A stretch of 64,000 nt of DNA from Candidatus Kapaibacteriales bacterium (GTDB taxonomy: Bacteria > Bacteroidota > Ignavibacteria > Kapaibacteriales > UBA2268), in contig CBFIFP010000001.1 in assembly GCA_965661945.1 (NCBI GenBank), positions 853,592-917,591 of the forward strand, in the 5' to 3' direction. Both the position numbers and the translations under genes were made by a program. Positions within the stretch are counted from its first letter, which is position 1. Every line of letters starts with the position of its first letter. Shown in pieces: positions 19,501 to 32,710 of the stretch. The notes below the pieces were generated by a model that was not told where the DNA came from, did no database searches, and saw nothing but the letters and a program-made list of their open reading frames with translations.

Positions 19501-22500
19501 ACTGGATTAAACCCAACAAATTCAAACACCATTGAAGAATCTATCGAACCAGGAATTACCTTTGTCCTACCAAATTTATGGAACAAACCTCCATTAAAAG
19601 AAAAACTATTAATAACATTTAATGTGTCTAATCTTGTAAATCTATCTACCCTTGCGGTTAATGCACCTTGTATAAATTCTGTAACTTTACCATTATTATA
19701 ATTTCTTTTTGCAGGGAATCCCCTCCAAAATCTTAACTCCCTAAACTCTCCCTCAAATCCATTACTCCTCTTCCCACCCTGCATTATTGGAGTATATCCA
19801 AGATACATTCTTTTATTATTTAACGTGTCATAATTCAAATCATAAAAATCTTCTTCGCCGAAATCGTTTTCTAATTCAATACCATCTACCCATAATAAAT
19901 AAGGACTTTCCTGATTAAATGGATTAAAATAAAAAGCTATATGAACCCAAGCCGTGTCTGTTGTTGTTGAAATCGGCTCTGGAAGTCCTTTATTCGCATC
20001 AGATATTGCTCGCTTTAATTGATTATTGCTATTTCTGTAGGTGAACTCTAATAGCCCAAATTGATTCAATGACAAGTCATATTTAATATCATTTGTTAAA
20101 GAATCAAGCATTGAAAGAATTGGGAACACACTTTCACTTTCTGTAGGGAATCTATGTGGCTTTATCCAAGTTTCAATAAAAATTCCTTCCTTATTTGGCA
20201 GTAATTTACTTGTGCTATCTGAATAAATTTTATTACTTTTTGTCTTACGTAATGAAAATTCTCTTGAAACTATAAACTCATCAGTAGTGTTTGAAATAGT
20301 TCTTTGATTATGATTTTCGTGTCCTGTAATGCGAAGCATCACTCTCTTTTCGTATGGCTCTACATCTCTTAAACTTCCTCCAACATCATTACTTTGGTAT
20401 GGTTCCCAAGTTGCTCGGTTATCTTCCACATCAATCGCTCCATTACCACCAAGTTTTAAGCCCTGCTGGTTTTCCACCTGTACCCAAGTTGAGCCGCTAT
20501 TAGTTGAAAACTCTAAATACAAATCTCGTGAAAATCTTTGAGAATTATTCCCCAATCCAAAACTTATAAATCTAATGGGATAGTTCTGACCCTGCTCTAT
20601 AACTAAGCCAGTTCCTCTACTCGGAGATGTAATCCTTCCGTGTGGCAAATCTGGAACAAATTTTGGAATCTCGCTTATTTGTGTTCCTACAATATGTTGA
20701 AGATTATTTATTCCATTCTGAAATTGCGTATTTGTAGCATAATCTTTTAAATCATCACTAAGTTTATAATATAAATCTAAACCGGTTCTTGTATCCGGAA
20801 GCTGATTAATATCAATTGTAGCTGGATTTATAACTCCGGTAGAATACTTTCTAATTGAATCCTGACCAAAAGCCGTCCTCCATACTTTCACTTCTTTAAT
20901 TGCACCTGCGAAGTAATTTTTAGCATCTAACTTATTATTCGGATTAACTCCTACCCAAATTGGATGGTCTGTAATTAATAGTCTGTAATCGTTATTTTTA
21001 TTAATTATATCAGTTGCAACCAACTCGCCATCAACATATAAATATGCAATTGAGTTTTCCAATATTGCCGAAATATGTGTCCAATTTCTTGAAAATCCAT
21101 CTTCATTATCTGAAAATGCACTTGCTTTTATTGGGTCTTCTGCTACAAGATTTACAATATATCCGCCTGCACCCCTATTTTGATTTTCTCTTGCTCGGAA
21201 AGCAGGATATTTTCCATCCTTCAAATATAAAAGCCAAGCACCTTCTTTACTGCCAAATATTTCAGCTTGATTAGGCCCACCAGACGATGCAACAATTCCA
21301 ACTTCACCTGAATTTAATTTAGTTGGATTTACCCATGCTTCAATTGTTAGATGTGTCGGATTTGAAAATGTTTTTTCTGTTTTAAAATATTCATTTGCAC
21401 CATTCAAAAAACTTGTGAAATATACTCCCATTGCTTGAGTTTGTGCAGATTCTGAAACAAGATTAGTTTTTTCTCTATCTTCAATATTATCTTCTACACT
21501 ACCGCTAAGCATTGAAATTCTTAACTTTACATTGCTATTTCTTTCTCTAATATTTGTTGGTTTTGACCATAAAACTCTCATTGGGTTTCTGTAATTTGAT
21601 GTTCCAATAGCTTGCCCAGCAGATGAAGTTATAACTAAAGTTCCAACCCCTGTAGGTCTTGCAATATCACCAGAACGATAAAATACTGAACTACCTAACG
21701 CCCGATTATTGTGGTCGGCTACTCTTCCTATTTCTTTCCAACTTCCATCATTATATTCAAAACTATATGCAATATTACCGTTTAATATCCCAGGGTTTGC
21801 CTGCGGATTAACCGAACGCTCAAAATAAATTGGATAGCCAACTCCTTGATATGTATTTGCAAGTGATAAGTATGGCTTATCTCTATCAATTACTTGTCCT
21901 GTGAATTTTGGTGATAAAAGCGTTACACCGATAATCGTGAAGTTGCTTGGCTGTTTTAATGTTGCTTTGCTTGTGATATTAGTTGAGTTTACATCAAGAA
22001 CATTAGTTGCTGGGTTTGAAGTTAAAAATTTTATTCCTGTTTGAGTGTTAATTGCTGGGCTGTTTATAATATCAAATACAACTTTGCCAAGGAAAGAACC
22101 ACGTCCTGTTTGAAGTGGAATGAAACCCCCGCTCCCCATACTGATTAATCTTGCTCGGATGCCAATATTAGTTTGATTATTCAATGCCGATAAACTGGCA
22201 TATCCATTTGTGCTGTTGTAAACCGAATTAATTTGAATAAGTGGGTTTGCTTGGTCTATATTACTTGAGATTGAATCAGCAATACCATTCACGGTATTTG
22301 TGTTTGGTCTTAGAAAAGCAGAATTATACTCTAACCAAATTTGTGCATCACCAATAACCGGCGGATTTGGCTTTAGCGATTTAACCCAAATTTCTGCGTG
22401 TATTTGGTCATATTTGCGACGTTGGACAATATTGAACTCATAGTCTTGTCCTATAACATCAATAGCAAACATAAGCAAAAGCATTGCTATTACTACATTT

Positions 22501-22508
22501 CTTGACAT
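16578..22508 (-). CDS. Giant secreted T9SS cargo protein (1976 aa) with a LamG-like domain, a dockerin-like repeat pair and a T9SS CTD; paralog of the 2140-aa protein
   Basis: Signal peptide MLLLMFAIDVIGQ. LamG block LTIEAWVNPTKL...AWLLYLKDGKYPAFRA...IAYLYVDGELV. Dockerin AMVAGDANQDGRIDSTDIQDIL...DLNADSIVNAVDRIL. Shared block HLPIMSRFPAPFKYKGEDKSTWAIESGWDF. C-terminus ...GIYFLVLETDDGVFFEKFIKD (T9SS CTD). Confidence 0.8.
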   Translation of the reverse strand: MSRNVVIAMLLLMFAIDVIGQDYEFNIVQRRKYDQIHAEIWVKSLKPNPPVIGDAQIWLEYNSAFLRPNTNTVNGIADSISSNIDQANPLIQINSVYNSTNGYASLSALNNQTNIGIRARLISMGSGGFIPLQTGRGSFLGKVVFDIINSPAINTQTGIKFLTSNPATNVLDVNSTNITSKATLKQPSNFTIIGVTLLSPKFTGQVIDRDKPYLSLANTYQGVGYPIYFERSVNPQANPGILNGNIAYSFEYNDGSWKEIGRVADHNNRALGSSVFYRSGDIARPTGVGTLVITSSAGQAIGTSNYRNPMRVLWSKPTNIRERNSNVKLRISMLSGSVEDNIEDREKTNLVSESAQTQAMGVYFTSFLNGANEYFKTEKTFSNPTHLTIEAWVNPTKLNSGEVGIVASSGGPNQAEIFGSKEGAWLLYLKDGKYPAFRARENQNRGAGGYIVNLVAEDPIKASAFSDNEDGFSRNWTHISAILENSIAYLYVDGELVATDIINKNNDYRLLITDHPIWVGVNPNNKLDAKNYFAGAIKEVKVWRTAFGQDSIRKYSTGVINPATIDINQLPDTRTGLDLYYKLSDDLKDYATNTQFQNGINNLQHIVGTQISEIPKFVPDLPHGRITSPSRGTGLVIEQGQNYPIRFISFGLGNNSQRFSRDLYLEFSTNSGSTWVQVENQQGLKLGGNGAIDVEDNRATWEPYQSNDVGGSLRDVEPYEKRVMLRITGHENHNQRTISNTTDEFIVSREFSLRKTKSNKIYSDSTSKLLPNKEGIFIETWIKPHRFPTESESVFPILSMLDSLTNDIKYDLSLNQFGLLEFTYRNSNNQLKRAISDANKGLPEPISTTTDTAWVHIAFYFNPFNQESPYLLWVDGIELENDFGEEDFYDLNYDTLNNKRMYLGYTPIMQGGKRSNGFEGEFRELRFWRGFPAKRNYNNGKVTEFIQGALTARVDRFTRLDTLNVINSFSFNGGLFHKFGRTKVIPGSIDSSMVFEFVGFNPVYSGNKPYMRIVEPQEFTTIKQTNTNLKIRWVGFGLDNNGFTAGQRFGNPPSLQFSEKGGAGNSAVPYQYVGSNYFTGNTRNSLSLPDSNNYRFKEFGNNIIFAASVNISIANPDLNNDNLFIDQGALPIVTDNLRFRLTSRYVVESTPFQVRSESPLYTVIPGENFTLRVLLEGKHRGRTSPIEQIKTKYEEGGIKVTLLEDNYGKPGTKLASAEAVRGYEEQNVFHQNSGQRNFANLPFLFLDVNDGNYWVLVEQINHLPIMSRFPAPFKYKGEDKSTWAIESGWDFTSWNGSNNNFLVEGENPWTQQRYTAFGNGEAIKDSALWVSTGLNFNDGLIDAVVSPFPAMVAGDANQDGRIDSTDIQDILINTGGSNIQYDLNADSIVNAVDRILTQRNIGKVSSLGEYNYLVYGNSDTFTSSIDFDDKNEEQINKLNRLNKFNKTKEINSLLNNVAYEITSQTTVNNDIATVEFFIKSSGADLYLGNASFAFTFDTLKLDYLNYDNSGILFSNNQEAGYLNSFSAPNENTTLPYKNMRTIEIVLAQDKNGSLVPDIASSLGKLQFKIKTDDAIIQFNWHNSSIVYDNQRQNVNPLGIKEIISPIKQFDVRLLNPDGTKNFGVGQQIELKWVNEGNPIQLEYFNGTTWQKITDSVFSKEAESFEWRLPNNEIENARVRIIDASLSIELVRSEPFRIERRFGQIVSPSSNDRIYKGGEFVQVYFSTTGYDKIDIEYTEDGGDSWKVVKKGVDADSEKFSWTFPRTNTNVFYFRILSGNEIIDISDRIRVLNGSLNINTPNSSTEWNAGSNERVRWTSAGVDRFTLQFSLDGGVNWLDISRNVNATARYYNWDIPSIITDNAMIRAIWSDDPEMLYDMTSPFAIDLSSSTEFTQNQEKIFKLVNFESINNSIKINSKRNIKVNAKVYDIRGQLTTEIKTYFTLGNNVLYLNNNLTNGIYFLVLETDDGVFFEKFIKD

Positions 22509-22627
22509 ATTTCAACTCAATTTTATAAACAACACTACTAAGATGTCAATTAATGTGCCACTTGTTTTTTTTAGATATTACAAAATTGAGGAATATCTAT
22601 TGAAAAGTAAATAGGAGGAAATACTGA
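22437..22627. repeat. Direct repeat A (~191 bp). It covers the first ~20 codons, RBS and promoter region of the 1976-aa giant gene and is ~93% identical to 31022..31212.
   Basis: Aligned by eye. ...cctataacatcaatagcaaacataagcaaaagcattgctattactacatttcttgacatatttcaac...aatgtgccacttgttttttt...attgaggaatatctattgaaaagtaaataggaggaaatactga recurs at 31022-31212. Confidence 0.85.
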
Positions 22628-22642
22628 ATTGAAAATAAAAAG

Positions 22643-22673
22643 TGAAAAAAAGGAATTTACCTTTTTTTCACTT
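22643..22673. terminator. AT-rich perfect hairpin (GTGAAAAAAAGG-aattta-CCTTTTTTTCAC), a candidate terminator
   Basis: 12-bp perfect inverted repeat just downstream of the stop of the 22697..23113 gene. Confidence 0.4.
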
Positions 22674-22696: not shown

Positions 22697-23113
22697 CTAC
22701 TTGCTGTTAAGATTTAAATTCTTTATCTTTTTAACTTTGTCTTTATATTGTTTAATAAAAAAGTAAGTTAAATTCATGTAGTAAATTAAATTTAAACCAA
22801 CAAATAAATAATTTAAAATTTCTTTACTTTCAACTAAAAAATTTAGCAAAAAAGTAATAGAGATTATTACAATTAAAAAACTGTGCACCAAATTTAAATC
22901 AAATTCTGATGAATCAATTTTATTTTGATTATTATCCAAATTTGAAATTATTTTTAAAATCAAATTCTGAAAAATAATAAAAGAAAACATCACCATTTGA
23001 CTTTTAAAATTTTTGATTTCCAAAACATTTTCTTCAAAAAATGGAATCAAAAATATTTCAATTAATAGTATAATTGAAAATATTTGAATAAGTGTTTTTA
23101 ATGTATTTTTCAT
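22697..23113 (-). CDS. Small multi-pass membrane protein (138 aa), a candidate immunity protein of cassette 1
   Basis: Several hydrophobic helices (IFSIILLIEIFLIPFF, VMFSFIIFQNLILKII, FLIVIISITFLLNFLV). It sits directly downstream of the lipoprotein remnant and overlaps it by 4 bp. Confidence 0.5.
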   Translation of the reverse strand: MKNTLKTLIQIFSIILLIEIFLIPFFEENVLEIKNFKSQMVMFSFIIFQNLILKIISNLDNNQNKIDSSEFDLNLVHSFLIVIISITFLLNFLVESKEILNYLFVGLNLIYYMNLTYFFIKQYKDKVKKIKNLNLNSK

Positions 23114-23262
23114 ATTAATCCTTTACCATAAGTCAAAAGCATCCCAGATTGTTTCAACTGCTTCACCAATTCCTTTACCGGCGGTTCCTCTTTACAAGAC
23201 CATAGAAAAGTTGATAAAAATATCAAAGAAACAATGCTTAGTTTTTTTATAGTTATGCGTGT
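23110..23262 (-). pseudogene. Truncated remnant of the cassette lipoprotein: signal peptide plus ~25 aa only
   Basis: RBS AAGGAG followed by an ATG. Translation MTRITIKKLSIVSLIFLSTFLWSCKEEPPVKELV..., then stop. Paralogs continue for ~270 more aa. Confidence 0.6.
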
Positions 23263-23321
23263 CATAACATCTCCTTTAAAAAAGTTTAACAAAAAATTTC
23301 AAATATTTTTAAAAATTTCTG

Positions 23322-23380
23322 CTAAATTAAGCACTGATAAATTAAGCACTGCTAAATTAATATGCAAGAACTTTTTTTTC
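23322..23380. repeat. 15-bp tandem repeat array (~2.5 units: GCTAAATTAAGCACT-like) upstream of cassette 1
   Basis: gctaaattaagcactgataaattaagcactgctaaattaatatgcaag. The same unit family occurs upstream of all five cassettes. Confidence 0.8.
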
Positions 23381-23394
23381 ACAAAAGAGAAAGT

Positions 23395-23445
23395 TTTCCA
23401 CATTTTGTTGAGATTATTGGGGTTGGGTGGAAATTTTTTTTTAAA
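23395..23445 (-). promoter_or_regulatory. Conserved cassette box (TTTTCCACA-TTT-TTGA-ATTATTGGGGTTGGGTGGAAA), occurrence 1
   Basis: Nearly identical sequence at 28138-28190. Related copies at 26575-26625, 30783-30835 and 32740-32790. It contains the inverted repeat TTTCCAC...GTGGAAA. Confidence 0.5.
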
Positions 23446-23518
23446 ATATGGTTATAAAATAAAACATAATTATAATAGTCAATAGCAATAGTAACGCAAA
23501 ATAAATAAAAGATAAAAT

Positions 23519-23707
23519 ATGTTAATATTTGATGAAAAAATAGAAGCAAATAAATTAATCTTAAATCTACCAAATGAATTTATTGGTAAAGAGTTGGAAG
23601 TGCATATCTTTAGTAAAAAAGATAAAAACAAAATTAAATTCAAAAATTTAAGATTATTGAAAACAAAAGAATATAAATTTAATCGTGATTTAGCAAATGA
23701 ACGATAA
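23519..23707 (+). CDS. Type II antitoxin (VapB-like), 62 aa
   Basis: Small ORF overlapping the downstream PIN-domain gene by 11 bp. Classic TA operon arrangement. Confidence 0.55.
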   Translation: MLIFDEKIEANKLILNLPNEFIGKELEVHIFSKKDKNKIKFKNLRLLKTKEYKFNRDLANER

Positions 23708-24104
23708 AGTTTTTATTGATTCTAATATCTGCATATATTGCTATTCTGATGATGAATTAGAAAAATCAGAAATTGCAAGAAAAATAATTATTAAAAATAA
23801 TTCATTTACAAGTATTCAAGTATTAAAAGAGTTATCAAATACTTTAATTAAAAAATTCAAATTAGATTTTAAAAATATTGAAAATATTATAAAAGAACAA
23901 ATTGAATTAAATAATGTTTATTTAAATAATGAAACAGATATTTTAAATGCTTTAAAAATATCAAATAAATACCAATTTAGTTTTTATGATAGTTTAATTA
24001 TATCTTCTGCTATATCTACAAATTCAAATATATTATATTCTGAAGATATGCAACACAATCAGATGATTGAAAGTAAATTAAAAATCATCAACCCGTTTTT
24101 ATGA
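23697..24104 (+). CDS. PIN-domain toxin (VapC-like ribonuclease), 135 aa
   Basis: N-terminal VFIDSNICIY (first acidic PIN residue) and C-terminal FYDSLIISSAI motif. Confidence 0.7.
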   Translation: MNDKVFIDSNICIYCYSDDELEKSEIARKIIIKNNSFTSIQVLKELSNTLIKKFKLDFKNIENIIKEQIELNNVYLNNETDILNALKISNKYQFSFYDSLIISSAISTNSNILYSEDMQHNQMIESKLKIINPFL

Positions 24105-24111
24105 TTATCTC

Positions 24112-24345
24112 TTATTTTGAATAGAATAGAATTAAGTAAAAAACTAATCTTCTACCCTTCGGTGTTGGAATTTCTAGGTTCTCATTTTTAGCTACTTCTA
24201 ACCATAACTCAATAGCATCGTTTATATTATTTAGAGCATCAAATTCGGTATCACCATGAGCCATACAACCCGGTAATTCTGGGACATCAATAACGAAACA
24301 ATCGTCTTCATCGCTCCAGTATATTATTTTTTCATATTTATTCAT
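24112..24345 (-). CDS. HicB-family (UPF0150-like) antitoxin, 77 aa
   Basis: IIYWSDEDDCFVIDVPELPGCMAHGDTEFDALNNINDAIELWLE matches the HicB/UPF0150 signature (YSxxIEWSDEDxxYVAxVPELPGCxAxGDT). Confidence 0.65.
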   Translation of the reverse strand: MNKYEKIIYWSDEDDCFVIDVPELPGCMAHGDTEFDALNNINDAIELWLEVAKNENLEIPTPKGRRLVFYLILFYSK

Positions 24346-24590
24346 TTTCTTCCCAACTGAATGAAAAGATGTAAAAAATTTTTATTATATCTTTTTTGTC
24401 TTACAGCATCAACTTCCTTGATTATCTCTTCCATAGATATATCATTTGGATTTGTTTTTAGCTTTGCTAACGTTTTTAAAAATCTATCATCAACGTCATC
24501 TGAAACAATCTTAGTTATATTCATTGTTTCTAAATCGTTTAATAGATTTTTAGCAAGAGGATTATTTAATTCTATTGATAATCTTTCCAT
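24342..24590 (-). CDS. Small antitoxin-like protein (82 aa); paralog of the antitoxin paired with a PIN toxin at 28584..28805
   Basis: MERLSIELNNPLAKNLLNDLETMNITKIVSDD... is ~85% identical to the 28584..28805 product. It overlaps the downstream HicB-like gene by 4 bp. Confidence 0.5.
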   Translation of the reverse strand: MERLSIELNNPLAKNLLNDLETMNITKIVSDDVDDRFLKTLAKLKTNPNDISMEEIIKEVDAVRQKRYNKNFLHLFIQLGRK

Positions 24591-24711
24591 TTTATCTTTT
24601 AATTTATATATTTTAAATAAAGACGTAGAATTAGAATACTTTATTATTTTGAATTTAATTTATAAAATATTGAAAATAGATATTCGTTAATAGACAAAAC
24701 AAAGAATAACT

Positions 24712-24915
24712 ATGCAAGAAAATTTAAAATCAAATATTATAAGCAAAATAAATGAATTAAATGATACAGATGTATTATTCGAAATAGATTCTTTATTGCA
24801 AAATCATAAAAAAATGACACTCGAAGAATATCAGTTAAAAATCAACAATGCTGAAAAAGATATTTTGGAAAATAACCTTTATTCTTCTGAAGAAATATCA
24901 AATTTACTATTATGA
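24712..24915 (+). CDS. Type II antitoxin (ParD/RelB-like), 67 aa
   Basis: Small acidic protein whose stop overlaps the start of the RelE/ParE toxin gene (ATGA). Duplicate at 28928..29131. Confidence 0.55.
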   Translation: MQENLKSNIISKINELNDTDVLFEIDSLLQNHKKMTLEEYQLKINNAEKDILENNLYSSEEISNLLL

Positions 24916-25208
24916 AATATATTGTTTCCTGGACAAATTCTACGAAAATTGACCTTCAAGAAATTTTAGATTATTATTTAATAAATGAAAATTTTAGTAT
25001 AGCTAAAAACCTATTAAATAAAATATTAAAATCCGTGACTTTATTAGAAAGGAATCCCAAACTAGGAAAATCTGAAACTTTGTTAGATGGTGATTACAGA
25101 TTTATTCAATCAGGAATTTATAAAATAGTTTATAAAATAAATAATAAACGAATATATATAATAGCAATATTTGATAACAGAAGAAACCCAGATGAATTAG
25201 TTATTTAG
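24912..25208 (+). CDS. RelE/ParE-family toxin, 98 aa
   Basis: ...LLDGDYRFIQSGIYKIVYKINNKRIYIIAIFDNRRNP is the hallmark C-terminal region of RelE/ParE toxins. Near-identical copy at 29128..29424. Confidence 0.75.
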   Translation: MKYIVSWTNSTKIDLQEILDYYLINENFSIAKNLLNKILKSVTLLERNPKLGKSETLLDGDYRFIQSGIYKIVYKINNKRIYIIAIFDNRRNPDELVI

Positions 25209-25227
25209 TGCAATTATTTTCTTATTA

Positions 25228-25262
25228 AGTAACATCAACAAGGGGTTTTGATGCCCCTTGTT
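25228..25262. terminator. Recurrent hairpin element CAACAAGGGG-ttttgatg-CCCCTTGTTG (bidirectional terminator between convergent genes)
   Basis: Perfect ~10-bp stem. The same element is found at 26773-26810 and 29445-29480. Confidence 0.6.
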
Positions 25263-25277
25263 GAGTGATAAGTTGTT

Positions 25278-25478
25278 TTATTTTAAATTATCTATATTTT
25301 TATTTGAAAAATAAATTACATTCCCAAGTAAAATCCCTAAAATAATTTCAAATAAAAATGTTGGTTCATAGTCTTCAAAAATAAATATTGCAACATTAAA
25401 AGCAAAGACTGAAAATATTATACACATTAGCATTGTTAAAATGTAATTAATTTTTCTATTTTTTGTTATTTTTTTCAT
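25278..25478 (-). CDS. Small membrane protein (66 aa, 2 TM), a candidate immunity protein of cassette 2
   Basis: Hydrophobic helices YILTMLMCIIFSVFAFNVAIFIF and LFEIILGILLGNVIYF. Directly downstream of the cassette-2 lipoprotein. Confidence 0.5.
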   Translation of the reverse strand: MKKITKNRKINYILTMLMCIIFSVFAFNVAIFIFEDYEPTFLFEIILGILLGNVIYFSNKNIDNLK

Positions 25479-25505
25479 ATTTATAATTCTCTTATTATAA
25501 TATAA

Positions 25506-26419
25506 TTACCAATCCAACCACCAAGGTAGCCCACCGGCTGCTTCTCCAATAGCTGCTTTAACTGAGTTTATTCCTGCTCCTACCATAGCAGCACCAAGGG
25601 TAATAGCTGCTATTCCACCTGGTCCAGTAGCAACAACCGCTTCTGGATTTGTAGCAAAAAACATCAAAGCTCCACCAGCTCCACCTACTGCTCCACCGAT
25701 ATCTTTTCCCATAACATTTTTTGCAGCAGGACTTAAATCTAATAATTTTGTTTTTGAGGAATTAGATTTATTTTTATTAATACTTATTTTGATAGTTTCA
25801 TCTACATTACCCAATTCTACCCAATCATCTTAATTAGAAGTCCAATAATTTATTGTATATTTTGCTACCATTAATGTTGCACCTACTATATATTTTTCTA
25901 TCAAACTATCTAAACTATATGCTACTGGTATTTCAGAATCACAATATTGATTAAATTGTACTAAAGTCATATTTTCATCAACATATTCATTAAATACACT
26001 ATCCAAATCAGATAACATATTAAATGCTTCTTCTGTTATATCTGGATTTGAGTTCAAATAATCACTTAATGTAGCGTAAATATTAACTTCCATAGAGTCA
26101 ATATATGACAAATCGTAATTTTTATCTTCCGCAAAATTTATGACTTCATTATAAATAAAATCATTAATTGAATCTTGTGGATGAGGATCAATTTCATTTT
26201 TTATTCGAAGCAATTTGTTGTAAATGTGTCCATACATTCATTATGATGAGTACCTACATCATTTACAGCAGTTAAATAATCATTATATGTTATTGTAGCA
26301 GAATTAGTTATCCTAATCCCATCACCACTCCTAACTGGCGGTTCCTCATTACAAGAGAATAATATTGTTGATAATAAAATCATAGAATAAATGCTTAGTT
26401 TTAGTGTTATGTATTTCAT
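25506..26419 (-). pseudogene. Cassette-2 surface lipoprotein with a Gly-zipper/microcin-like C-terminus, disrupted by one -1 frameshift (~26215) and one in-frame TAA (25827-25829)
   Basis: Three ORF-track pieces (26201..26455, 25830..26237, 25506..25814) are collinear with the intact paralog 27108..27977. The N-terminus is MKYITLKLSIYSMILLSTILFSCNEEPPV. The VGTHHNE motif is present. The C-terminus is ...GGAVGGAGGALMFFATNPEAVVATGPGGIAAITLGAAMVGAGINSVKAAIGEAAGGLPWWLDW. Confidence 0.7.
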
Positions 26420-26469
26420 AATCACTCCTTTTATTAATTTAACAAAATTATTCAAATAAAATTTGAATT

Positions 26470-26560
26470 TCTGCTAAATTAAGCAATGCTGAATTAAGCA
26501 ATGCTGAATTAAGCAATGCTGAATTAAGCAATGCTAAATTAAGCAATGCTAAATTTAGTA
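26470..26560. repeat. 15-bp tandem repeat array, ~5.5 units of GCTGAATTAAGCAAT / GCTAAATTAAGCAAT
   Basis: ctgctaaattaagcaatgctgaattaagcaatgctgaattaagcaatgctgaattaagcaatgctaaattaagcaatgctaaatttag. Confidence 0.9.
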
Positions 26561-26574
26561 GAAAATTATTTTTT

Positions 26575-26625
26575 TTCCACACAAGGAGTATTTTTCCACA
26601 ATCTATTGATATATATAGATATATA
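26575..26625 (-). promoter_or_regulatory. Conserved cassette box variant (TTTTCCACAATCTATTGATATATATAGATATATA)
   Basis: Shares TTTTCCACAAT-TATTGATAT with the other four cassette upstream regions. Confidence 0.45.
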
Positions 26626-26772
26626 AGTTTATTTTTTTTTATTATTTTTTTTATATATGGACTTAGGAAGCATAAATTGGTTAATAGTTGTGTTTGTTTT
26701 TGGGTTTTGATTAATATTCAACATCGGAGATGTTGAATAGAATAGAATTAATTTAATATAATTAATAAATTA

Positions 26773-26810
26773 TTTAATACAACATCAACAAGAGGTTTTG
26801 TTGCCCCTTG
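26773..26810. terminator. Recurrent hairpin CAACAAGAGG-ttttgttg-CCCCTTGTTG
   Basis: Same element family as 25228-25262. It lies between cassette 3 and the upstream region of cassette 2. Confidence 0.5.
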
Positions 26811-26829
26811 TTGAGTAAAATTTGTTTTA

Positions 26830-27135
26830 TTACAAATTGTTCTTGCTTTTTATTTTGCTTTTTTTATATTTTTCTAGCTCAAAACAAAAAATACCACACA
26901 TCAAGCCAAAAACAATTGAAACAATAATTACTGAAGAGTCATAAACATCATCAGTTCCAAAAAGTAAAATATAGACAATTATTTGTAACAAAAACATTTC
27001 AATTATTGAAAATATAGTGAGTTTAATTCGAGATTTATATTTAAAATCAAAATATATTTTTATAACTGATAATAAAATCTTCTTTGAATTATGCTCTTTC
27101 ATATTTATCAACCAGTTATGCCTTGCAACCACCAT
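26830..27135 (-). CDS. Small membrane protein (≤101 aa; the start may be the internal MKEHNSKK), a candidate immunity protein of cassette 3
   Basis: Two hydrophobic helices (LTIFSIIEMFLLQIIVYILLF; VIIVSIVFGLMCGIFCF). It overlaps the 3' end of the lipoprotein gene. Confidence 0.5.
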   Translation of the reverse strand: MVVARHNWLINMKEHNSKKILLSVIKIYFDFKYKSRIKLTIFSIIEMFLLQIIVYILLFGTDDVYDSSVIIVSIVFGLMCGIFCFELEKYKKSKIKSKNNL

Positions 27136-27977
27136 GGAACATCTATCACAATAGAAAGTGCTGATACACCAGACGCAGCTGCACCACCGACTAGTCCTGC
27201 ATTAATTGTAATGGCAATAGCTACTGCTGGTCCTCCAACCCAACTATAGTATAGTCCGTGAACAGCACCTCCTACTGCCCCAGCAACATCTGCTGATATG
27301 ACTCTTTTAGCTTCTGGGCTTAATGCTAATAATCTATTATTATTTTTATTCTGATGTTTCAATTCATTCTTTATTTGTATAGAACTTTCTTCCTCAAGCA
27401 AGTCAATCCAATCATCAAAATTAGTATTCCAATAATTAGCCGAATTTTTTGCTACACTTAATGCAATACCAACAACGTAAGCTTCAGTGATTGAATCTAA
27501 TGAATATGCTATGTTTATATTTGTATTGCAATACGTTTCAAATTGCATAAGAGTTATTCCATCATTAGAATACACATTAAAAACACTATCTAAACTAATC
27601 AGCATATTTTTTGCAGATTGACTTAAAATAGTATCAGTTGTTAAAATATCATTAATTGCAATTGGGTTAAAATAAAAATCTGATATCCCAGTAGTATCAA
27701 CATTGGAATTATCAAACCCATTAACATAAGCAAAAGATAGTGAATTTCCTATTAGGTAATCCAGTAGAGGAATATCTGGTTGTTCTATTTCATCGTTTTT
27801 TATTTTAGAAAGCAAAGTATACATACTGTCTAAGTACTCATTATGTAAAGAACCAACTGTATTTACATCATTTGTAAAATCATACAAACTTACACTATTT
27901 AATATTCTTAAATTTTGTGTAGAATTAACCGGCGGTTCCTCTTTACAAGAGAATAAAATTGTTGATAATAATATCAT
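27108..27977 (-). CDS. Cassette-3 surface lipoprotein with a Gly-zipper/microcin-like C-terminus (289+ aa). The body is intact, but the ancestral ATG of the signal peptide is ATC here, so the ORF track starts at an internal Met.
   Basis: Upstream in frame: AAAGGAGctgttATCAAGCACATAACACAAAAACTAAGCATTTTTTCT... = (I)KHITQKLSIFSMILLSTILFSCKEEPPV. Conserved VGSLHNEYLD motif. C-terminus ...RVISADVAGAVGGAVHGLYYSWVGGPAVAIAITINAGLVGGAAASGVSALSIVIDVPWWLQGITG with GxxxG zippers. Confidence 0.7.
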   Translation of the reverse strand: MILLSTILFSCKEEPPVNSTQNLRILNSVSLYDFTNDVNTVGSLHNEYLDSMYTLLSKIKNDEIEQPDIPLLDYLIGNSLSFAYVNGFDNSNVDTTGISDFYFNPIAINDILTTDTILSQSAKNMLISLDSVFNVYSNDGITLMQFETYCNTNINIAYSLDSITEAYVVGIALSVAKNSANYWNTNFDDWIDLLEEESSIQIKNELKHQNKNNNRLLALSPEAKRVISADVAGAVGGAVHGLYYSWVGGPAVAIAITINAGLVGGAAASGVSALSIVIDVPWWLQGITG

Positions 27978-28064
27978 AGAAAAAATGCTTAGTTTTTGTG
28001 TTATGTGCTTGATAACAGCTCCTTTATCTTAATTTAACAATTATTCAAATAAAATTTGAATTTC

Positions 28065-28125
28065 TGCTTAATTAAGCAATGCTAAATTAAGTAATGCTAA
28101 ATTAAGATGCAAGAACTTTTTTTTC
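28065..28125. repeat. 15-bp tandem repeat array (~2.5 units) upstream of cassette 3
   Basis: ctgcttaattaagcaatgctaaattaagtaatgctaaattaagatgcaag. Confidence 0.8.
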
Positions 28126-28137
28126 AAAAAAAGAGAA

Positions 28138-28190
28138 AGTTTTCCACAATTTATTGATATTATTGGGGTTGGGTGGAAATTTTTTTTTGG
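28138..28190 (-). promoter_or_regulatory. Conserved cassette box, occurrence 3 (nearly identical to 23395-23445)
   Basis: agttttccacaatttattgatattattggggttgggtggaaatttttttt. Confidence 0.5.
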
Positions 28191-28192
28191 TA

Positions 28193-28600
28193 TTAATAAT
28201 CTTTTAAGATAAATTCAAATTCACTATATTTTATGATTTTAGTATATCCAATTTGATTTAAAACTAATAAGTCATAGTCCCCAGTAATTATAAAATCTGA
28301 ATTGCTATCAACTGCAAGATTTAAAATAAAATTGTCTTTTCTATCTCTACAAATTTTTATGTTTGATTCAATGTGAATTTGTAAACCATATTTTTTCAAT
28401 AAATCTATAATATTATTGACATCATCTTCTTCAAAATACTTTTTAAATTTTTTTCTTTTAGATACATCTTTAATTTCATCTAATAGTTCATCAGAATAAA
28501 CTAAAGTAATAATATTATTCTTCAATAAATTATAAATCACTTCGAATTTATTTGATATTAAAAAATAAATCCAAACATTAGTATCAAATATTATTTTCAT
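28193..28600 (-). CDS. PIN-domain toxin (TIGR00305-like putative TA toxin), 135 aa
   Basis: MKIIFDTNVWIYFL (first PIN acidic residue) and DFIITGDYDLL near the C-terminus. It overlaps the upstream antitoxin gene. Confidence 0.7.
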   Translation of the reverse strand: MKIIFDTNVWIYFLISNKFEVIYNLLKNNIITLVYSDELLDEIKDVSKRKKFKKYFEEDDVNNIIDLLKKYGLQIHIESNIKICRDRKDNFILNLAVDSNSDFIITGDYDLLVLNQIGYTKIIKYSEFEFILKDY

Positions 28601-28805
28601 TATATCTTTTCTGTCTTACAACATCAACTTCCTTGATTATTTCTTCCACAGAAATATCATTTTTTTTAGTCTTTAGCTTAGCTAAAGTTTGTAAAAATCT
28701 TTCATCAACGTCATCTGAAACAATTTTAATCAAATTAAGTGTTTCTAAATCATTTAATAGATTTTTAGCAAGCGGATTAGTTAATTCTATTGATAATCTT
28801 TCCAT
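28584..28805 (-). CDS. Antitoxin partner of the PIN toxin (73 aa)
   Basis: MERLSIELTNPLAKNLLNDLETLNLIKIVSDD... It overlaps the PIN gene by 17 bp. Paralog of 24342..24590. Confidence 0.55.
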   Translation of the reverse strand: MERLSIELTNPLAKNLLNDLETLNLIKIVSDDVDERFLQTLAKLKTKKNDISVEEIIKEVDVVRQKRYNENNI

Positions 28806-28927
28806 TTTTTTTTATTTAATTTATGTATCTTAAATAAAGACGAAGATTAGAATACTTTATTTTTTGAATTTAATTTATAAAATATTGAAAATAGATATTC
28901 GTTAATAGACAAAAACAAAGAGTATCT

Positions 28928-29131
28928 ATGCAAGAAAATTTAAAATCAAATATTATAAACAAAATAAATGAATTAAATGATACAGATGTATTATTTGAAA
29001 TAGATTCTTTATTGCAAAATCATAAAAAAATGACACTCGAAGAATATCAGTTAAAAATCAACAATGCTGAAAAAGATATTTTGGAAAATAACCTTTATTC
29101 TTCTGAAGAAATAGCAAATTTACTATTATGA
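28928..29131 (+). CDS. Type II antitoxin (ParD/RelB-like), duplicate of 24712..24915
   Basis: 67 aa, ~98% identical to the 24712 copy. It overlaps the downstream toxin start. Confidence 0.55.
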   Translation: MQENLKSNIINKINELNDTDVLFEIDSLLQNHKKMTLEEYQLKINNAEKDILENNLYSSEEIANLLL

Positions 29132-29424
29132 AATATATTGTAAGGTGGACTAATTCTGCGAAAATTGACCTTCAAGAAATTTTAGATTATTATTTAATAA
29201 ATGAAAATTATAGTATTGCTAAAAACCTATTAAATAAAATATTAAAATCCGTGACTTTATTAGAAAGGAATCCCAAACTAGGAAAATCTGAAACTTTGTT
29301 AGATGGTGATTACAGATTTATTCAATCAGGAATTTATAAAATAGTTTATAAAATAAATAATAAACGAATATATATAATAGCAATATTTGATAGCAGAAGG
29401 AACCCAGATGAATTAGTTATTTAG
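29128..29424 (+). CDS. RelE/ParE-family toxin, duplicate of 24912..25208
   Basis: 98 aa differing at ~4 residues from the 24912 copy. The flanking non-coding sequence is also duplicated. Confidence 0.75.
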   Translation: MKYIVRWTNSAKIDLQEILDYYLINENYSIAKNLLNKILKSVTLLERNPKLGKSETLLDGDYRFIQSGIYKIVYKINNKRIYIIAIFDSRRNPDELVI

Positions 29425-29444
29425 TGCATTTATCTTTTTATTTA

Positions 29445-29480
29445 GTAACATCAACAAGGGGTTTTGATGCCCCTTGTTGA
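29445..29480. terminator. Recurrent hairpin CAACAAGGGG-ttttgatg-CCCCTTGTTG (third copy)
   Basis: Identical to the element at 25228-25262. Confidence 0.6.
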
Positions 29481-29524
29481 TTTGGGAATAAAACAAGAAT
29501 TATTTATAATATTTTAATAAAATC

Positions 29525-29785
29525 TTACTTTTTTAAATTACTATCTAAGTTTTTATTTCTTTTATTAGCTATAAAATAAATAATATAGCCACCAAAAGAA
29601 CCTGCAATTATAGATCCTAAAATAGATGGTTTACTTTTAGTCAAATTAAAACCATACATTATAAAGTCAATTACTAAAAGCAAAATGATTGTAAAAATCA
29701 TTATATTTACAACTCTTTTAGTTAGAAATCTTCTAAATTTTAGAAAATTATTTACTAATTTATTTAAAGCCAATCTAACCACCAT
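29525..29785 (-). CDS. Small membrane protein (86 aa, 2 TM), a candidate immunity protein of cassette 4
   Basis: IMIFTIILLLVIDFIMYGF and ILGSIIAGSFGGYIIYFIA helices. It overlaps the lipoprotein 3' end. Confidence 0.5.
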   Translation of the reverse strand: MVVRLALNKLVNNFLKFRRFLTKRVVNIMIFTIILLLVIDFIMYGFNLTKSKPSILGSIIAGSFGGYIIYFIANKRNKNLDSNLKK

Positions 29786-30659
29786 GGAGCTCCTGCAGCG
29801 ATTTTTACTGCCTTTTTCAAAGATTTAGTTCCAGCATAGACCATTGACACACCAATTGCACCAGCAAAAGCACCACCTGGACCTGCAGATAATCCTCCAG
29901 CGATTAATACAGCAAAAGCTCCTTGTTTGGCACCCTCCAAATCCTGATTAATCACATCTTTGCCATCTTGACTTATTTCAAGTAATTTATTACTTTTTGA
30001 ATTAGATTTAGATTTTGAAACCAAATTAGTACTTTCTTCTATATCATTCATAAGGTTAAACCAGTCATCGTAATTTTGATTCCAATAGTTAGCAGTATGT
30101 TTAGCCACTGCAAAAGTTAACCCTATAGAAATTTTTTCTGAAAGACTATCTAAATTATATGCTAAATTTATATTTGAGTTACAATATGAATCAAATTGAG
30201 CAATTGTAATATTATTATTAGCTAATTCAGTAACCATACTGTCTAAATTTAATAACATTTGCTCAGATTGTTCTGTTAAGTTCGGACTTGTTTGTAAATA
30301 CCCTACTATATCTCTTGGATAAATTATTGAAGATGTATCTAAATAATCTAAAATATAACCTTTATTATCAGCAAAATTGTAAACTTCAATTCTTATAAAA
30401 TCATCTATAGATATGTGTGGTTGAGTATCAATTCCTTCTTTAATTCTATATAGTTTTTCATATAACGTGTCAAGAACTTCATTATGATGAAGACCTACCA
30501 TATTGACTGTATCAACATAGCCAGAATAAGTAATATTAGTAGTTAAATTTTGATAGAACTCTCCACCACTTCTAACTGGTTATTCCTCTTTACAAGAGAA
30601 TAATATTGTTGATAATAATATCATAGAAACAATGCTTAGTTTAAGTGTTATGTGCTTCA
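29764..30659 (-). pseudogene. Cassette-4 surface lipoprotein with a Gly-zipper C-terminus. It carries an in-frame TAA replacing the Pro codon directly after the lipobox Cys-Lys-Glu-Glu. The ORF track shows only the piece from the internal Met (29764..30501).
   Basis: ATGAAGCACATAACACTTAAACTAAGCATTGTTTCTATGATATTATTATCAACAATATTATTCTCTTGTAAAGAGGAATAACCAGTTAGAAGT... = MKHITLKLSIVSMILLSTILFSCKEE*PVRSGG, in frame with MVGLHHNEVLD... The C-terminus ends ...GGLSAGPGGAFAGAIGVSMVYAGTKSLKKAVKIAAGAPWWLDWL. Confidence 0.65.
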
Positions 30660-30711
30660 TAACAGCTCCTTTATATTAATTTAACAAAATTATTCAAATA
30701 AAATTTGAATT

Positions 30712-30770
30712 TCTGCTAAATTAAGCAATACTAAATTAAGCAATGCTAAATTAATATGCAAGAACTTTTT
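30712..30770. repeat. 15-bp tandem repeat array (~2.5 units) upstream of cassette 4
   Basis: ctgctaaattaagcaatactaaattaagcaatgctaaattaatatgcaag. Confidence 0.8.
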
Positions 30771-30782
30771 TTTCACAAAAGA

Positions 30783-30835
30783 AAAAGTTTTCCACAAATC
30801 ATTGGGGTTGTTGGGTTTGGGTGGTGAATTAAATT
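30783..30835 (-). promoter_or_regulatory. Conserved cassette box, degenerate occurrence 4
   Basis: gttttccacaaatcattggggttgttgggtttgggtggtgaatt. Confidence 0.4.
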
Positions 30836-31021
30836 TTTTTGATTTGTTAAAATTCAACATCTCCAATATTGTGGGTAGGTGGTAGGTTTATTTTTCTACA
30901 AATATTTTACATCTCCGATGTGGGTTAGAAAATTAAATATATTTGATTTAGATTATTATGATTGAATTTTACAATTATTTATAAATTTCATTGCTTCGGA
31001 GAAGCATAATATTTGTAGCAT

Positions 31022-31212
31022 AATTTACCCCCCTGCCCTACAACATCCATAGCAAACATAAGCAAAAGCATTGCTATTACTACATTTCTTGACATATTTC
31101 AACCCAATTTTATAAACAACACTTTAATAGGTCAATTAATGTGCCACTTGTTTTTTTAGATTTTACAAAATTGAGGAATATCTATTGAAAAGTAAATAGG
31201 AGGAAATACTGA
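31022..31212. repeat. Direct repeat B (~191 bp), a copy of the promoter/5'-end region of the 1976-aa giant gene. It encodes only a truncated signal peptide (MSRNVVIAMLLLMFAMDVVGQGG... then stop).
   Basis: ~93% identity to 22437-22627. The minus-strand translation gives the giant protein's first 20 residues, then diverges and terminates. Confidence 0.85.
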
Positions 31213-31224
31213 GAAAATTAAAAA

Positions 31225-31256
31225 AACAAGGGCAATGATGCCCTTGTTTTAATTAT
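31225..31256 (-). terminator. Hairpin terminator (ACAAGGGCA-atga-TGCCCTTGT) downstream of the 31273..31644 gene
   Basis: 9-bp perfect stem flanked by A/T runs on both sides. Confidence 0.55.
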
Positions 31257-31272
31257 TTTAATATGATTATCG

Positions 31273-31644
31273 TCAAAGTTTCTTTAAAATTGGTGTGATA
31301 ATATCAGACTTAAAATCATTATAACTTAAAATATCTCTCTTAAATCGAGGAAAGTATTCTAATCTAATTTGATCTTTAAATAAATCCAATTTTATAAAAT
31401 ACCCAAAATCATTAAATTTTATTTTACTTTCAAATATGGTTGTATTTTCTTTAGTTGCTAATTTTTTTAAATCAATACCTTTTAATACATCAACAATAAA
31501 TTTATATTTTGTTTTATCATTTGATATATGGTAAACATAATAGGCTCTCCTTTTTCCTGAAAATTTTCGTATTCTGAAATAAGAATATATTAAAAAATTT
31601 ACTATTAGAAATGATAAAGATAAGACAATTAAATTAAATTCCAT
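31273..31644 (-). CDS. Membrane-anchored small protein (123 aa; one N-terminal TM), a candidate immunity protein of cassette 5
   Basis: MEFNLIVLSLSFLIVNFLIYSYF TM helix followed by a charged soluble domain. It lies downstream of the cassette-5 lipoprotein pieces. Confidence 0.45.
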   Translation of the reverse strand: MEFNLIVLSLSFLIVNFLIYSYFRIRKFSGKRRAYYVYHISNDKTKYKFIVDVLKGIDLKKLATKENTTIFESKIKFNDFGYFIKLDLFKDQIRLEYFPRFKRDILSYNDFKSDIITPILKKL

Positions 31645-31662
31645 TTGTTTATTCCTTTGTAT

Positions 31663-32555
31663 TTATTCACAAGGTACAGGTTGTTTACATTGAACACAGT
31701 AGCAAGGCCAAACTGGATCTTCGTCACCTTCTGAGTTAGAAGTTGCAATCCCTAAAATCATTATACCAGAAGTAACAGCAGCACCAAATCCACCTAGTAC
31801 AGTACCTAAGGCATCTGCACCTAAAACTGCAATGGCTTCATTTGCTTGGTCAAGAGCTTCATAATTTGGAGCCATTAATAAACTTGCCGCTTTAGTCTCG
31901 AAACCATTTGGATACCAATATTCTTTCGATTTTCTATATACTGCTTCAAATTTCAGTGCGTTAGAATAGACACTTGTATTTAAGGTATCCCAAGGAAAAT
32001 TTTCAATTCTGTTATTAAAACTAATTAAATCTAAATTTTTATAATCATTTATCATAGGGGATAAAATAGAATAATTAATTGAGTCAATATAATTCATAAC
32101 AAATGCTTCTTCAAAAATATCATCTACATGATCAAATAAAAAATTTAGAACTAAAGTATCATTTAGTTTACTAAATAAACCTACCTCCATAAAAAAATCT
32201 TTGATATTTTCTCTTTGTGAATCTACTTGACTCTCAGAATAAATATTATTTACAATATAATAATCACCCATAATCTCTAAAAATTATCAAGATCACCTAC
32301 AGTTGCAAAAAAATCACCCTCAAAATTATATAACATTAAATGAGTACTATCATGAGGTAAATTGTTATTATGGTAATAAGCTAACAAATTATTGTGTTCA
32401 ACTCCAACACTATCATAAGGATTTGAAAAGGTTGTAGAAGTTGTATAATTAATATCATTCCCAATTTTAGCGAGTGGCTCCTCCTTACAAGACCAAAGAA
32501 ATGTAGATAATAAAATCATAGAAAAAATACTTAGTTTAAGTGCTATGTGTTTCAT
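31663..32555 (-). pseudogene. Cassette-5 lipoprotein family member split into two ORFs (32277..32555 N-terminal signal part; 31663..32271 C-terminal part) by a frame change. Its C-terminus diverges: a Gly/Ala zipper followed by a Cys-rich tail CYCVQCKQPVPCE.
   Basis: N-terminal part MKHIALKLSIFSMILLSTFLWSCKEEPLAKIG...VGVEHNNLLAYYHNN... with RBS AAGGAGttgttATG. The second ORF is in a different frame and ends ...AIAVLGADALGTVLGGFGAAVTSGIMILGIATSNSEGDEDPVWPCYCVQCKQPVPCE. It may alternatively be two genuine genes. Confidence 0.5.
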
Positions 32556-32609: not shown

Positions 32610-32710
32610 TGCTAATTTAAGCAATGCTAATTTAAGCAATGCTAATTTAAGCAATGCTAATTTAAGCAATGCTAATTTAAGCAATGCTAATTTAAGCAAT
32701 GCTAATTTAA
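32610..32710. repeat. 15-bp tandem repeat array, ~6.5 units of GCTAATTTAAGCAAT
   Basis: ctgctaatttaagcaatgctaatttaagcaatgctaatttaagcaatgctaatttaagcaatgctaatttaagcaatgctaatttaatatcc. Confidence 0.9.

Follow-up and report, generated by a model that had tools for sequence, protein, structure and literature searches.

A stretch of 64,000 nt from a Candidatus Kapaibacteriales genome (the window, to which unprefixed coordinates refer) carries, on its minus strand at about 22.6-32.8 kb, five transcription units that each join a lipoprotein gene to a gene for a small membrane protein. The most useful outcome of our analysis is that these units belong to a large, wholly unannotated family of gene pairs. 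The island that holds them is a variable locus with five copies of the cassette (c1 to c5), most of which are broken. Judged from the sequences compared here, we give about an even chance to the view that the pairs are polymorphic lipoprotein toxin/immunity modules acting through a membrane-active hairpin. A wider formulation, which we would rate a little short of even, is that they represent a large undescribed family of lipoprotein bacteriocins in the Bacteroidota (FCB group). This family would comprise at least 1,200 clusters and combine surface or vesicle display, a pore-forming hairpin, a cognate immunity protein with two transmembrane (TM) segments, recombining arrays with hypermutable promoter repeats in some lineages, and retention of immunity after loss of the toxin. 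Loci or assemblies used for comparison are designated L0xx and compared proteins P0xxx.

The five units share a common anatomy. Read 5' to 3', each consists of a 15-bp tandem repeat, a short inverted repeat, an AAAGGAG ribosome-binding site, the lipoprotein gene, a small open reading frame (ORF) adjoining or overlapping that gene at its 3' end, and a terminator-like hairpin that is the single terminator of the unit. The upstream region and the DNA for the signal peptide are 77-91% identical over 170-400 nt across the five units, and the DNA that encodes the leader itself, MK(H/N/Y)ITLKLSI(F)SMILLSTILFSC and then KEEPPV, is likewise conserved. A preliminary description of this DNA, which placed the array at 22697-32555, had reported the same two-gene unit five times over, with a lipoprotein signal peptide and a VGxxHNE motif. 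The signal peptide and the motif are indeed present, as is a Gly/Ala-rich C-terminal hairpin ending in PWWLDW. The five cassettes with their shared leader and upstream region also stand, but c5 is non-homologous past residue 64: only the leader and the VGxxHN motif are common to c5 and the other copies, and its partner is of another type as well. The residues following the lipobox Cys are C-K-E-E in c1, c3, c4, and c5 and C-N-E-E in c2. The Bacteroidetes lipoprotein export signal (LES) is K-(D/E)2 or Q-A-(D/E)2 directly after the lipidated Cys (PMC5080379), and CKEE fits the first of these forms, in agreement with the resemblance noted in the preliminary description.

A full HMMER profile search with the lipoprotein returned 1,210 clusters (50% identity representatives) at E<=1e-3, of which 279 reached E<=1e-10, and most of the matches were 270-320 amino acids (aa) long and aligned end to end. 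This overturned the impression of a very rare family given by a word-indexed search, which yielded only six relatives and in which a profile re-search scored only 14 proteins. The family is covered by no Pfam or NCBIfam model, its members are all named "hypothetical protein" in their sources, and the taxon labels seen were Sphingobacteriales, Balneolales, Kapabacteriales, and one Fusobacterium-labelled metagenome-assembled genome. Among 27 aligned members chosen from across the family, the lipobox Cys does not vary and VGxxHNxxLD and SVAKxSxxYW motifs recur; an invariant Asp opens a GAVxGAxxGA zipper, and a C-terminal Trp motif is usual. Among 140 full-length members, zipper motifs (at least three overlapping) occur in the last 80 aa of 139, the YW motif in 137, the GxxH motif in 133, and a lipobox, by a crude pattern, in at least 117. 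Identity within the clade is 70-100% over the first 30 aa, 24-54% in the middle domain, and 20-51% in the tail. Distant members lie in unrelated genomic neighbourhoods as single copies without the 15-bp repeat, and the partner gene is still there.

Pairing with the second gene is the other constant feature. Co-occurrence with small TM genes, which the preliminary description had proposed to follow, was found wherever it was inspected: a gene for a small membrane protein (predicted 1-4 TM segments) lies directly downstream in 11 of 11 loci with an intact lipoprotein, drawn from Kapabacteriales, Sphingobacteriales, and Balneolales among others, and the damaged c1-c4 of the window are paired likewise. 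The partners at these loci measure 34 aa (L001), 76-147 aa (L010-L013), 54 aa (L014), about 56 aa (L016, an uncalled ORF), 58 aa (L018), 71 aa (L019), 168 aa (L020), and 89 aa (L021). Those of the window are as follows.

22697..23113, minus strand: c1 partner, an open 138-aa ORF with 3-4 predicted TM segments
25278..25478, minus strand: c2 partner, a 66-aa 2-TM ORF
26830..27135, minus strand: c3 partner, a 101-aa 2-TM ORF (90 aa if the second ATG, at 27102, is used)
29525..29785, minus strand: c4 partner, an 86-aa 2-TM ORF overlapping the 3' end of the lipoprotein gene
31273..31644, minus strand: c5 partner, 123 aa, with one N-terminal TM segment and a soluble domain

The second gene had been described as always encoding a small TM protein dissimilar from the others. 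TM segments are predicted in all five, but the 2-TM partners, although very divergent, share a common design and track the type of the lipoprotein tail. Most partners at the 11 loci have two TM helices with a GxxxG in TM2, and the alignment of 2-TM partners runs from a basic N-terminus through TM1, a short loop, and a TM2 in which GxxxG is followed by YF, to a K/N-rich basic C-terminus. The c1 partner is 87% identical (E 9e-64, dN/dS 0.31) to the L012 partner, which follows the intact lipoprotein P0006. The c2 partner matches the L011 partner (43% identity, E 2e-16), which belongs to P0003, and the tail of P0003 is the closest to that of c2. The c3 partner matches the L010 partner, which belongs to P0002 (26% identity, E 2e-7). 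Across 36 pairs, tail identity and partner identity correlate weakly (Spearman 0.38, p 0.02), and the evidence that partners track tails therefore rests on these specific homologous pairs (c1-c3). In c3 (27108-27135) and c4 (29764-29785), the overlapping partner ORF has its first in-frame ATG within the conserved codons for PWW (CCATGGTGG), and this motif may thus double as a translational-coupling site.

The content of the locus changes between strains. Four different cassette sets occupy one site, adjoining a conserved 1,970-aa Laminin_G_3 protein, in the orders given below (TA, toxin-antitoxin module).

Window: c5, c4, TA, c3, c2, TA, c1 remnant
L004: c3, c2, TA, then a 386-aa Cys-rich protein with the same leader and a 151-aa lipoprotein partner
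L001: YafQ-type TA, a 301-aa lipoprotein with a 34-aa partner, c5
L009: c5, then the 386-aa protein with the 151-aa partner

Three non-homologous bodies are thus found behind one leader, each with a different kind of partner. When aligned to the family profile with hhalign, c5 matches at residues 1-64 only and the 386-aa protein at the signal peptide only. The body of the latter, with a Cys-rich segment (CDRNPDCAGSPIEGTCAY...), is found at L004 4823-6401 and L009 3332-4910 and is followed by the 151-aa lipoprotein partner; neither of the two has a Pfam or PDB match, and the c5-type body has no PDB sequence match. The DNA of the c5 cassette (31273-32555) is 99.3-100% identical to L001 11419-12702 and L009 5231-6514. 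Compared with L001, the lipoprotein gene is 99.3% and the partner gene 100% identical, and the partner is also 100% identical to that of L009. The large flanking gene in the same genomes shows 75% identity in DNA and 69% in protein, and this difference indicates that the cassette reached the same locus recently by lateral transfer. Near the distant family member at L014, a second cassette (9343-10196) encodes a 222-aa lipoprotein-like protein with an overlapping 62-aa 2-TM ORF; heterogeneous cassette arrays are therefore present in other lineages too.

Polymorphic toxins are defined generically by a constant trafficking part, a variable cargo, and a cognate, variable downstream partner (PMC3482391). 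The gene pairs match this definition because they have a conserved N-terminal part with variable cargo and a downstream partner that varies with the type of tail or body, together with fast cassette turnover and lateral movement. The toxin-immunity interpretation advanced in the preliminary description is partly supported by this comparative pattern (constant leader, variable bodies, co-varying partner, cassette turnover, recent transfer, decay of lipoprotein genes beside open partners, and the LES-like CKEE), but the array in the window consists mostly of pseudogenes and no toxin hidden Markov model (HMM) reaches its threshold.

In fact, all five lipoprotein genes of the window are damaged, with six lesions in total, while none of the five partner ORFs is. 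The state of each lipoprotein gene is as follows.

23110..23265, minus strand: c1 lipoprotein remnant, the leader (MTRITIKKLSIVSLIFLSTFLWSCKEEPPV) fused in the wrong frame to the final 54 nt of a P0006-type gene
25506..26419, minus strand: c2 Gly-zipper lipoprotein pseudogene, frameshifted past the HNE motif by a single-A deletion and also carrying an in-frame stop (TSN*DDW)
27108..28013, minus strand: c3 Gly-zipper lipoprotein, frame open, with ATC in place of ATG at the canonical start
29764..30660, minus strand: c4 Gly-zipper lipoprotein pseudogene, interrupted at codon 27 by an in-frame TAA (CKEE*PV)
31663..32555, minus strand: c5 lipoprotein pseudogene of a different body type, with a single-A deletion frameshift

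The 817-bp internal segment missing from c1 corresponds to nt 334-1150 of L012 in a BLASTN comparison, and its loss spared the partner. The 289-aa ORF called for c3 (27108..27977), which had been taken for an intact copy, starts inside the signal peptide and lacks the n-region, since the canonical start has mutated to ATC; c3 is identical to P0001. The c5 protein joins the common leader and VGxxHN motif to a single Gly-zipper helix and is Cys-rich at its end; an intact ortholog of 297 aa is found in L001 and L009. Sequencing error as the cause of all lesions could be ruled out for the c2 stop, which recurs in the independent assemblies L003 and L004, and for the c3 ATC, which recurs in L003, L004, and L005; both are therefore real. 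The frameshifts of c2 (about 26190) and c5 (about 32280) are found only in the window. In both, comparison with other assemblies shows that one A has dropped out of an ATT[A]T context, which may reflect true mutation or a systematic assembly error. With most of its copies being pseudogenes, the array in this genome is not an active five-copy toxin battery. If the pairs are toxins and immunity proteins, this genome would have lost most of its toxin genes while the immunity genes persist.

An AlphaFold2 model of c3 is all-alpha (mean pLDDT 72, pTM 0.76) and comprises a helical bundle (residues 31-191, pLDDT about 80-92), a low-confidence K/N-rich linker, and the C-terminal helical hairpin (helices 221-247 and 250-276, pLDDT about 60-79) that had been anticipated in the preliminary description. 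The hairpin superposes on the membrane Gly-zipper hairpins of TIM22, TraT, and SlyB. Its hydrophobicity is borderline for a TM segment, with a maximum KD19 of 1.5-1.8 compared with 1.51 for the SlyB hairpin. The tails had been called almost purely Gly/Ala, which overstates a content of 39-48%. The GxxxG/AxxxG zippers themselves hold across the family, but the proposed likeness to microcins is only compositional, given this Gly+Ala content and the borderline, SlyB-like hydrophobicity, and no HMM reached threshold in its favour. Searches for Gly-zipper, microcin, and colicin families, a check that the preliminary description had proposed, gave nothing above threshold. The gathering thresholds of Gly-zipper_Omp (PF13488), Gly-zipper_OmpA (PF13436), Gly-zipper_YMGG (PF13441), and Rick_17kDa_Anti (PF05433) were not reached, and the window copies had no match to them at E<=1. 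The best cases were P0004, which scored 13.4 bits against PF13488 (cutoff 25) and had sub-threshold matches to the Gly-zipper_Omp, YMGG, and Rick_17kDa models, and one of the 27 aligned members, which reached E 8.7e-4 with PF13436. The Pfam Colicin pore-forming domain was not found, nor was a nuclease or any other Pfam/NCBIfam domain in the lipoproteins. Matches to DUF6861 (E 6.7e-5, 2 of 27 members) and geobacillin-26 (E 7.7e-4, 1 of 27) were judged compositional or insufficient. Foldseek searches of PDB and BFVD returned no match better than E 0.1. Two alleles of one lipoprotein, P0004 (L001 10001-10906) and P0161 (L007 106-1023), are alike except for an additional AGAM unit (12 nt) in Gly-zipper helix 2, which amounts to exactly one zipper period.

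Lipoproteins carrying Gly-zipper hairpins are already known, and the main rival to a toxin function is drawn from them. The hairpin could anchor the lipoprotein in the outer membrane of the producer itself and drive oligomerisation, as in proteins of the SlyB/TraT type, with a role in envelope protection, surface exclusion, or receptor masking, diversity imposed by phages or predators, and the small inner-membrane protein as an assembly or regulatory accessory. We regard this as unlikely, though it has points in its favour. SlyB (7ojf_A) is the best PDB sequence match of the family profile, if a weak one confined to the hairpin region (E 0.012, 18 bits), and it also gives the best, if marginal, match in fold; P0004 is drawn toward the Gly-zipper models mentioned above, and the hydrophobicity of the hairpin equals that of SlyB. 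SlyB, Pcp, the Rickettsia 17-kDa antigen, and TraT likewise combine an N-terminal lipid anchor with a Gly/Ala-zipper helix-turn-helix of about 45 residues. However, all of these matches fall below significance and the Pfam thresholds and do not extend beyond a hairpin of low complexity, about 45-65 residues long. The domain order also differs, the hairpin here being C-terminal and following a helical bundle, and no similarity to SlyB was found over the whole fold. An outer-membrane anchor would leave unexplained the obligate, co-varying inner-membrane partner, the unrelated bodies behind one leader, the lateral transfer of whole cassettes, and the partner that is still open where the lipoprotein gene has been deleted. 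We know of no co-varying inner-membrane partner or polymorphic locus for SlyB, Pcp, the 17-kDa antigen, or TraT.

The DNA upstream of the cassettes raises a different possibility. The 15-bp tandem repeat TTGCTTAATTTAGCA, a near-palindrome (TGCTTAA/TTTAGCA), lies upstream of every cassette in 2.6-6.7 copies, and its copy number at the same cassette varies between near-identical strains. On its 3' side, TTCAAAT-N3-ATTTGAA forms a perfect inverted repeat, and TAATTTTG is a -7 box of the Bacteroidetes type. In two relatives the repeat was located at L003 958-1062 and L004 1572-1616.

23319..23360, minus strand: 15-bp repeat of c1, 2.8 copies
26472..26555, minus strand: 15-bp repeat of c2, about 5.6 copies (3 in L003 and L004)
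28065..28106, minus strand: 15-bp repeat of c3, about 2.8 copies (7 in L003)
30716..30754, minus strand: 15-bp repeat of c4, 2.6 copies
32610..32710, minus strand: 15-bp repeat of c5, 6.7 copies

The repeat could be a contingency or regulatory element. This, the tandem array of paralogs, and the contrast between a 5' region and signal peptide conserved in DNA and highly divergent mature parts would all be expected of phase-variable surface lipoproteins, in which hypermutable promoter repeats switch expression and so alter the cell surface against phages, grazers, or hosts. The array would then be analogous to the Vlp and Vsa gene families of mycoplasmas. We nevertheless think it improbable that phase variation accounts for the family, as distant members are single-copy and lack the 15-bp repeat, yet retain the partner gene. 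The conserved hairpin and the invariant His, Trp, and Asp point to a conserved molecular activity and not to antigenic filler. Phase-variable expression is, moreover, compatible with a toxin function and does not exclude it.

Several described systems share parts of the design. Cdz comprises the surface-retained Gly-zipper bacteriocins CdzC/D and a small inner-membrane immunity protein, CdzI (PMC5380434). Its likeness to the pairs lies in a Gly-zipper-rich, membrane-active polypeptide on the surface of the producer, a small inner-membrane immunity protein encoded alongside, and a proposed pore action, all of which are predictions for the pairs; a gene for a small membrane protein, with 1-4 predicted TM segments, does accompany the lipoprotein gene at each of the 11 intact loci inspected. 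In contrast, CdzC and CdzD are peptides of about 85 aa that bear a leader, depend on dedicated type I export, and act as a two-peptide aggregate, whereas the family described here consists of a single lipoprotein of about 300 aa with a Sec/signal peptidase II signal, a helical bundle, and a C-terminal hairpin. No sequence homology to Cdz was detected, and there is no type I secretion gene in the cassettes or the island. SitA/SitI are lipoprotein polymorphic toxins of myxobacteria (PMC5562445, PMC8546572) and resemble the pairs in their lipobox anchor, conserved N-terminal part, variable cargo, and downstream gene in the same operon, as well as in being multi-copy and mobile. SitA differs in its cytoplasm-acting nuclease cargo behind escort domains of about 375 aa and in its delivery by TraA/TraB outer-membrane exchange. 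The cassettes described here encode a lipobox lipoprotein and a downstream gene in one operon, but Pfam and NCBIfam scans found neither a nuclease nor any other domain, an escort domain included; here, in the phylum Bacteroidota, the place of that cargo is taken by a membrane-targeting hairpin or other bodies, with predicted membrane immunity proteins.

Pore-forming toxins offer further parallels. The all-alpha bundle with a hydrophobic hairpin near the C-terminus recalls pore-forming colicins and the ionophore toxins of contact-dependent inhibition (CDI), which have small, highly polymorphic membrane immunity proteins specific for the cognate toxin (PMC11630599), as the small polymorphic partner is predicted to be here. 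TelE is a Gly-zipper toxin (PMC10434224). In the Bacteroidales, the BSAPs, which are MACPF toxins, are pore-forming antibacterial proteins that act in competition between close relatives (PMC12853789). Unlike the pairs, BSAPs adopt a MACPF fold and are not accompanied by a dedicated membrane immunity protein, and we found no relationship in sequence or fold. The spanin pair Rz/Rz1 was also considered as a model and does not fit in gene order, sizes, or the lack of a phage context.

Taken as toxin and immunity protein, the two genes suggest the following mechanism. The lipoprotein would be exported by Sec and lipid-modified at the lipobox Cys, and in this clade the LES-like CKEE would direct it to the cell surface and perhaps also to outer-membrane vesicles. 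Bacteroides is reported to pack surface-exposed lipoproteins into vesicles (PMC6222051). In the displayed protein, a K/N-rich linker would connect a helical bundle of about 160 aa to the C-terminal Gly-zipper hairpin with its aromatic end (PWWLDW). After passage to a neighbouring cell, the hairpin would enter the cytoplasmic membrane from the periplasmic side, and inserted hairpins would oligomerise and dissipate the membrane potential. The producer would be protected by the co-transcribed small 2-TM inner-membrane protein, whose TM2, with its GxxxG, may bind the cognate hairpin within the membrane. New cassettes could be swapped in by recombination between the conserved 5' promoter/leader and the conserved 3' terminator region.

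A number of observations weigh against this interpretation. We infer surface exposure, the delivery route, toxicity, pore formation, and immunity from sequence, and no delivery machinery for the lipoprotein was identified. Scans of the lipoproteins, tails, partners, c5 body, and 386-aa body with Pfam, NCBIfam, and PADLOC gave nothing above threshold, and no toxin, bacteriocin, microcin, colicin, Gly-zipper, or immunity HMM reached its threshold; a match of the c2 tail to the halocin C8 precursor (E 0.05) was judged compositional or insufficient. SlyB and TraT, the closest relatives that can be recognised for the hairpin, are outer-membrane lipoproteins and not toxins. Only a minority of members have a clear LES-like acidic motif, with at least two acidic residues at positions +2 to +6 in 46 of 117. 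For a family that exceeds 1,200 clusters, the inspection of partner genes covered just 11 loci. The single-A deletions, which account for two of the six lesions and were seen in this assembly only, could be assembly errors. The asymmetry between damaged lipoprotein genes and open partners is only suggestive given the gene lengths, as random placement by gene length puts all six lesions in lipoprotein genes with p of about 0.17.

Should the toxin interpretation nevertheless be correct, the Bacteroidota would gain a class of interbacterial weapons that is widespread and so far unannotated, and more than 1,000 clusters of "hypothetical" gene pairs would receive a function. They would be the first lipoprotein-delivered polymorphic toxins outside the myxobacteria, with a membrane-targeting instead of a nuclease payload. 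The two-gene module would also be tractable for studying helix-helix recognition between a Gly-zipper toxin and its immunity protein. The locus displays cassette turnover, lateral transfer, and what would be the loss of toxins from pairs whose partner genes survive.

The cassettes are interleaved with TA modules. The addiction modules listed in the preliminary description were recovered by Pfam as PIN, PIN_3, HicB-like, and two ParE domains, and they form two blocks.

23519..25208: TA block A, with a 62-aa ORF with PIN (plus strand), a HicB-like gene (minus strand), an 82-aa antitoxin-like fragment (minus strand), and a 67-aa ORF with ParE (plus strand)
28193..29424: TA block B, with PIN_3 and a 73-aa antitoxin (minus strand) and a 67-aa ORF with ParE (plus strand)

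This interleaving of the cassettes with PIN, HicB, and ParE modules in a hypervariable island, along with their modular two-gene design and patchy distribution, could suggest anti-phage or abortive-infection modules in a defence island, with the lipoprotein as effector and the small membrane protein as inhibitor or sensor. We consider this very improbable. PADLOC models match no component, a Sec-exported lipoprotein is poorly placed to receive cytoplasmic signals of infection, and no family member turned up in a phage context, although such contexts were barely looked at.

A 196-nt direct repeat (93%; 22447..22641 and 31034-31224) covers the promoter and first codons of a 1976-aa gene. The preliminary description had the island bracketed by long direct repeats. 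Such a repeat exists but brackets only an 8.6-kb block with c1-c4 and the TA modules, leaving c5 outside, and this arrangement suggests that the block was inserted or expanded there by recombination. Within the block, a segmental duplication (24378-25264 and 28593-29480; 890 nt, 94%) takes in ParD/ParE and an antitoxin fragment together with the terminator hairpin. In its copy A, a HicB-like gene without an adjacent HicA stands in place of the PIN_3 toxin partner. Rfam and tRNA scans of the island were empty. Six terminator-like hairpins were found against 1.8 expected from shuffles, and those following the cassettes, also seen as repeat family D7, are located as follows.

22640..22673, minus strand: terminator-like hairpin after c1
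25235-25264, minus strand: terminator-like hairpin after c2
26785-26814, minus strand: terminator-like hairpin after c3
about 29447-29480, minus strand: terminator-like hairpin after c4
31223-31250, minus strand: terminator-like hairpin after c5

Beside the island, three giant tandem ORFs of 2140, 2544, and 1976 aa occupy 1828-22508. The 1976-aa protein has Laminin_G_3 domains and a weak match to Por_Secre_tail, a C-terminal sorting domain of type IX secretion.

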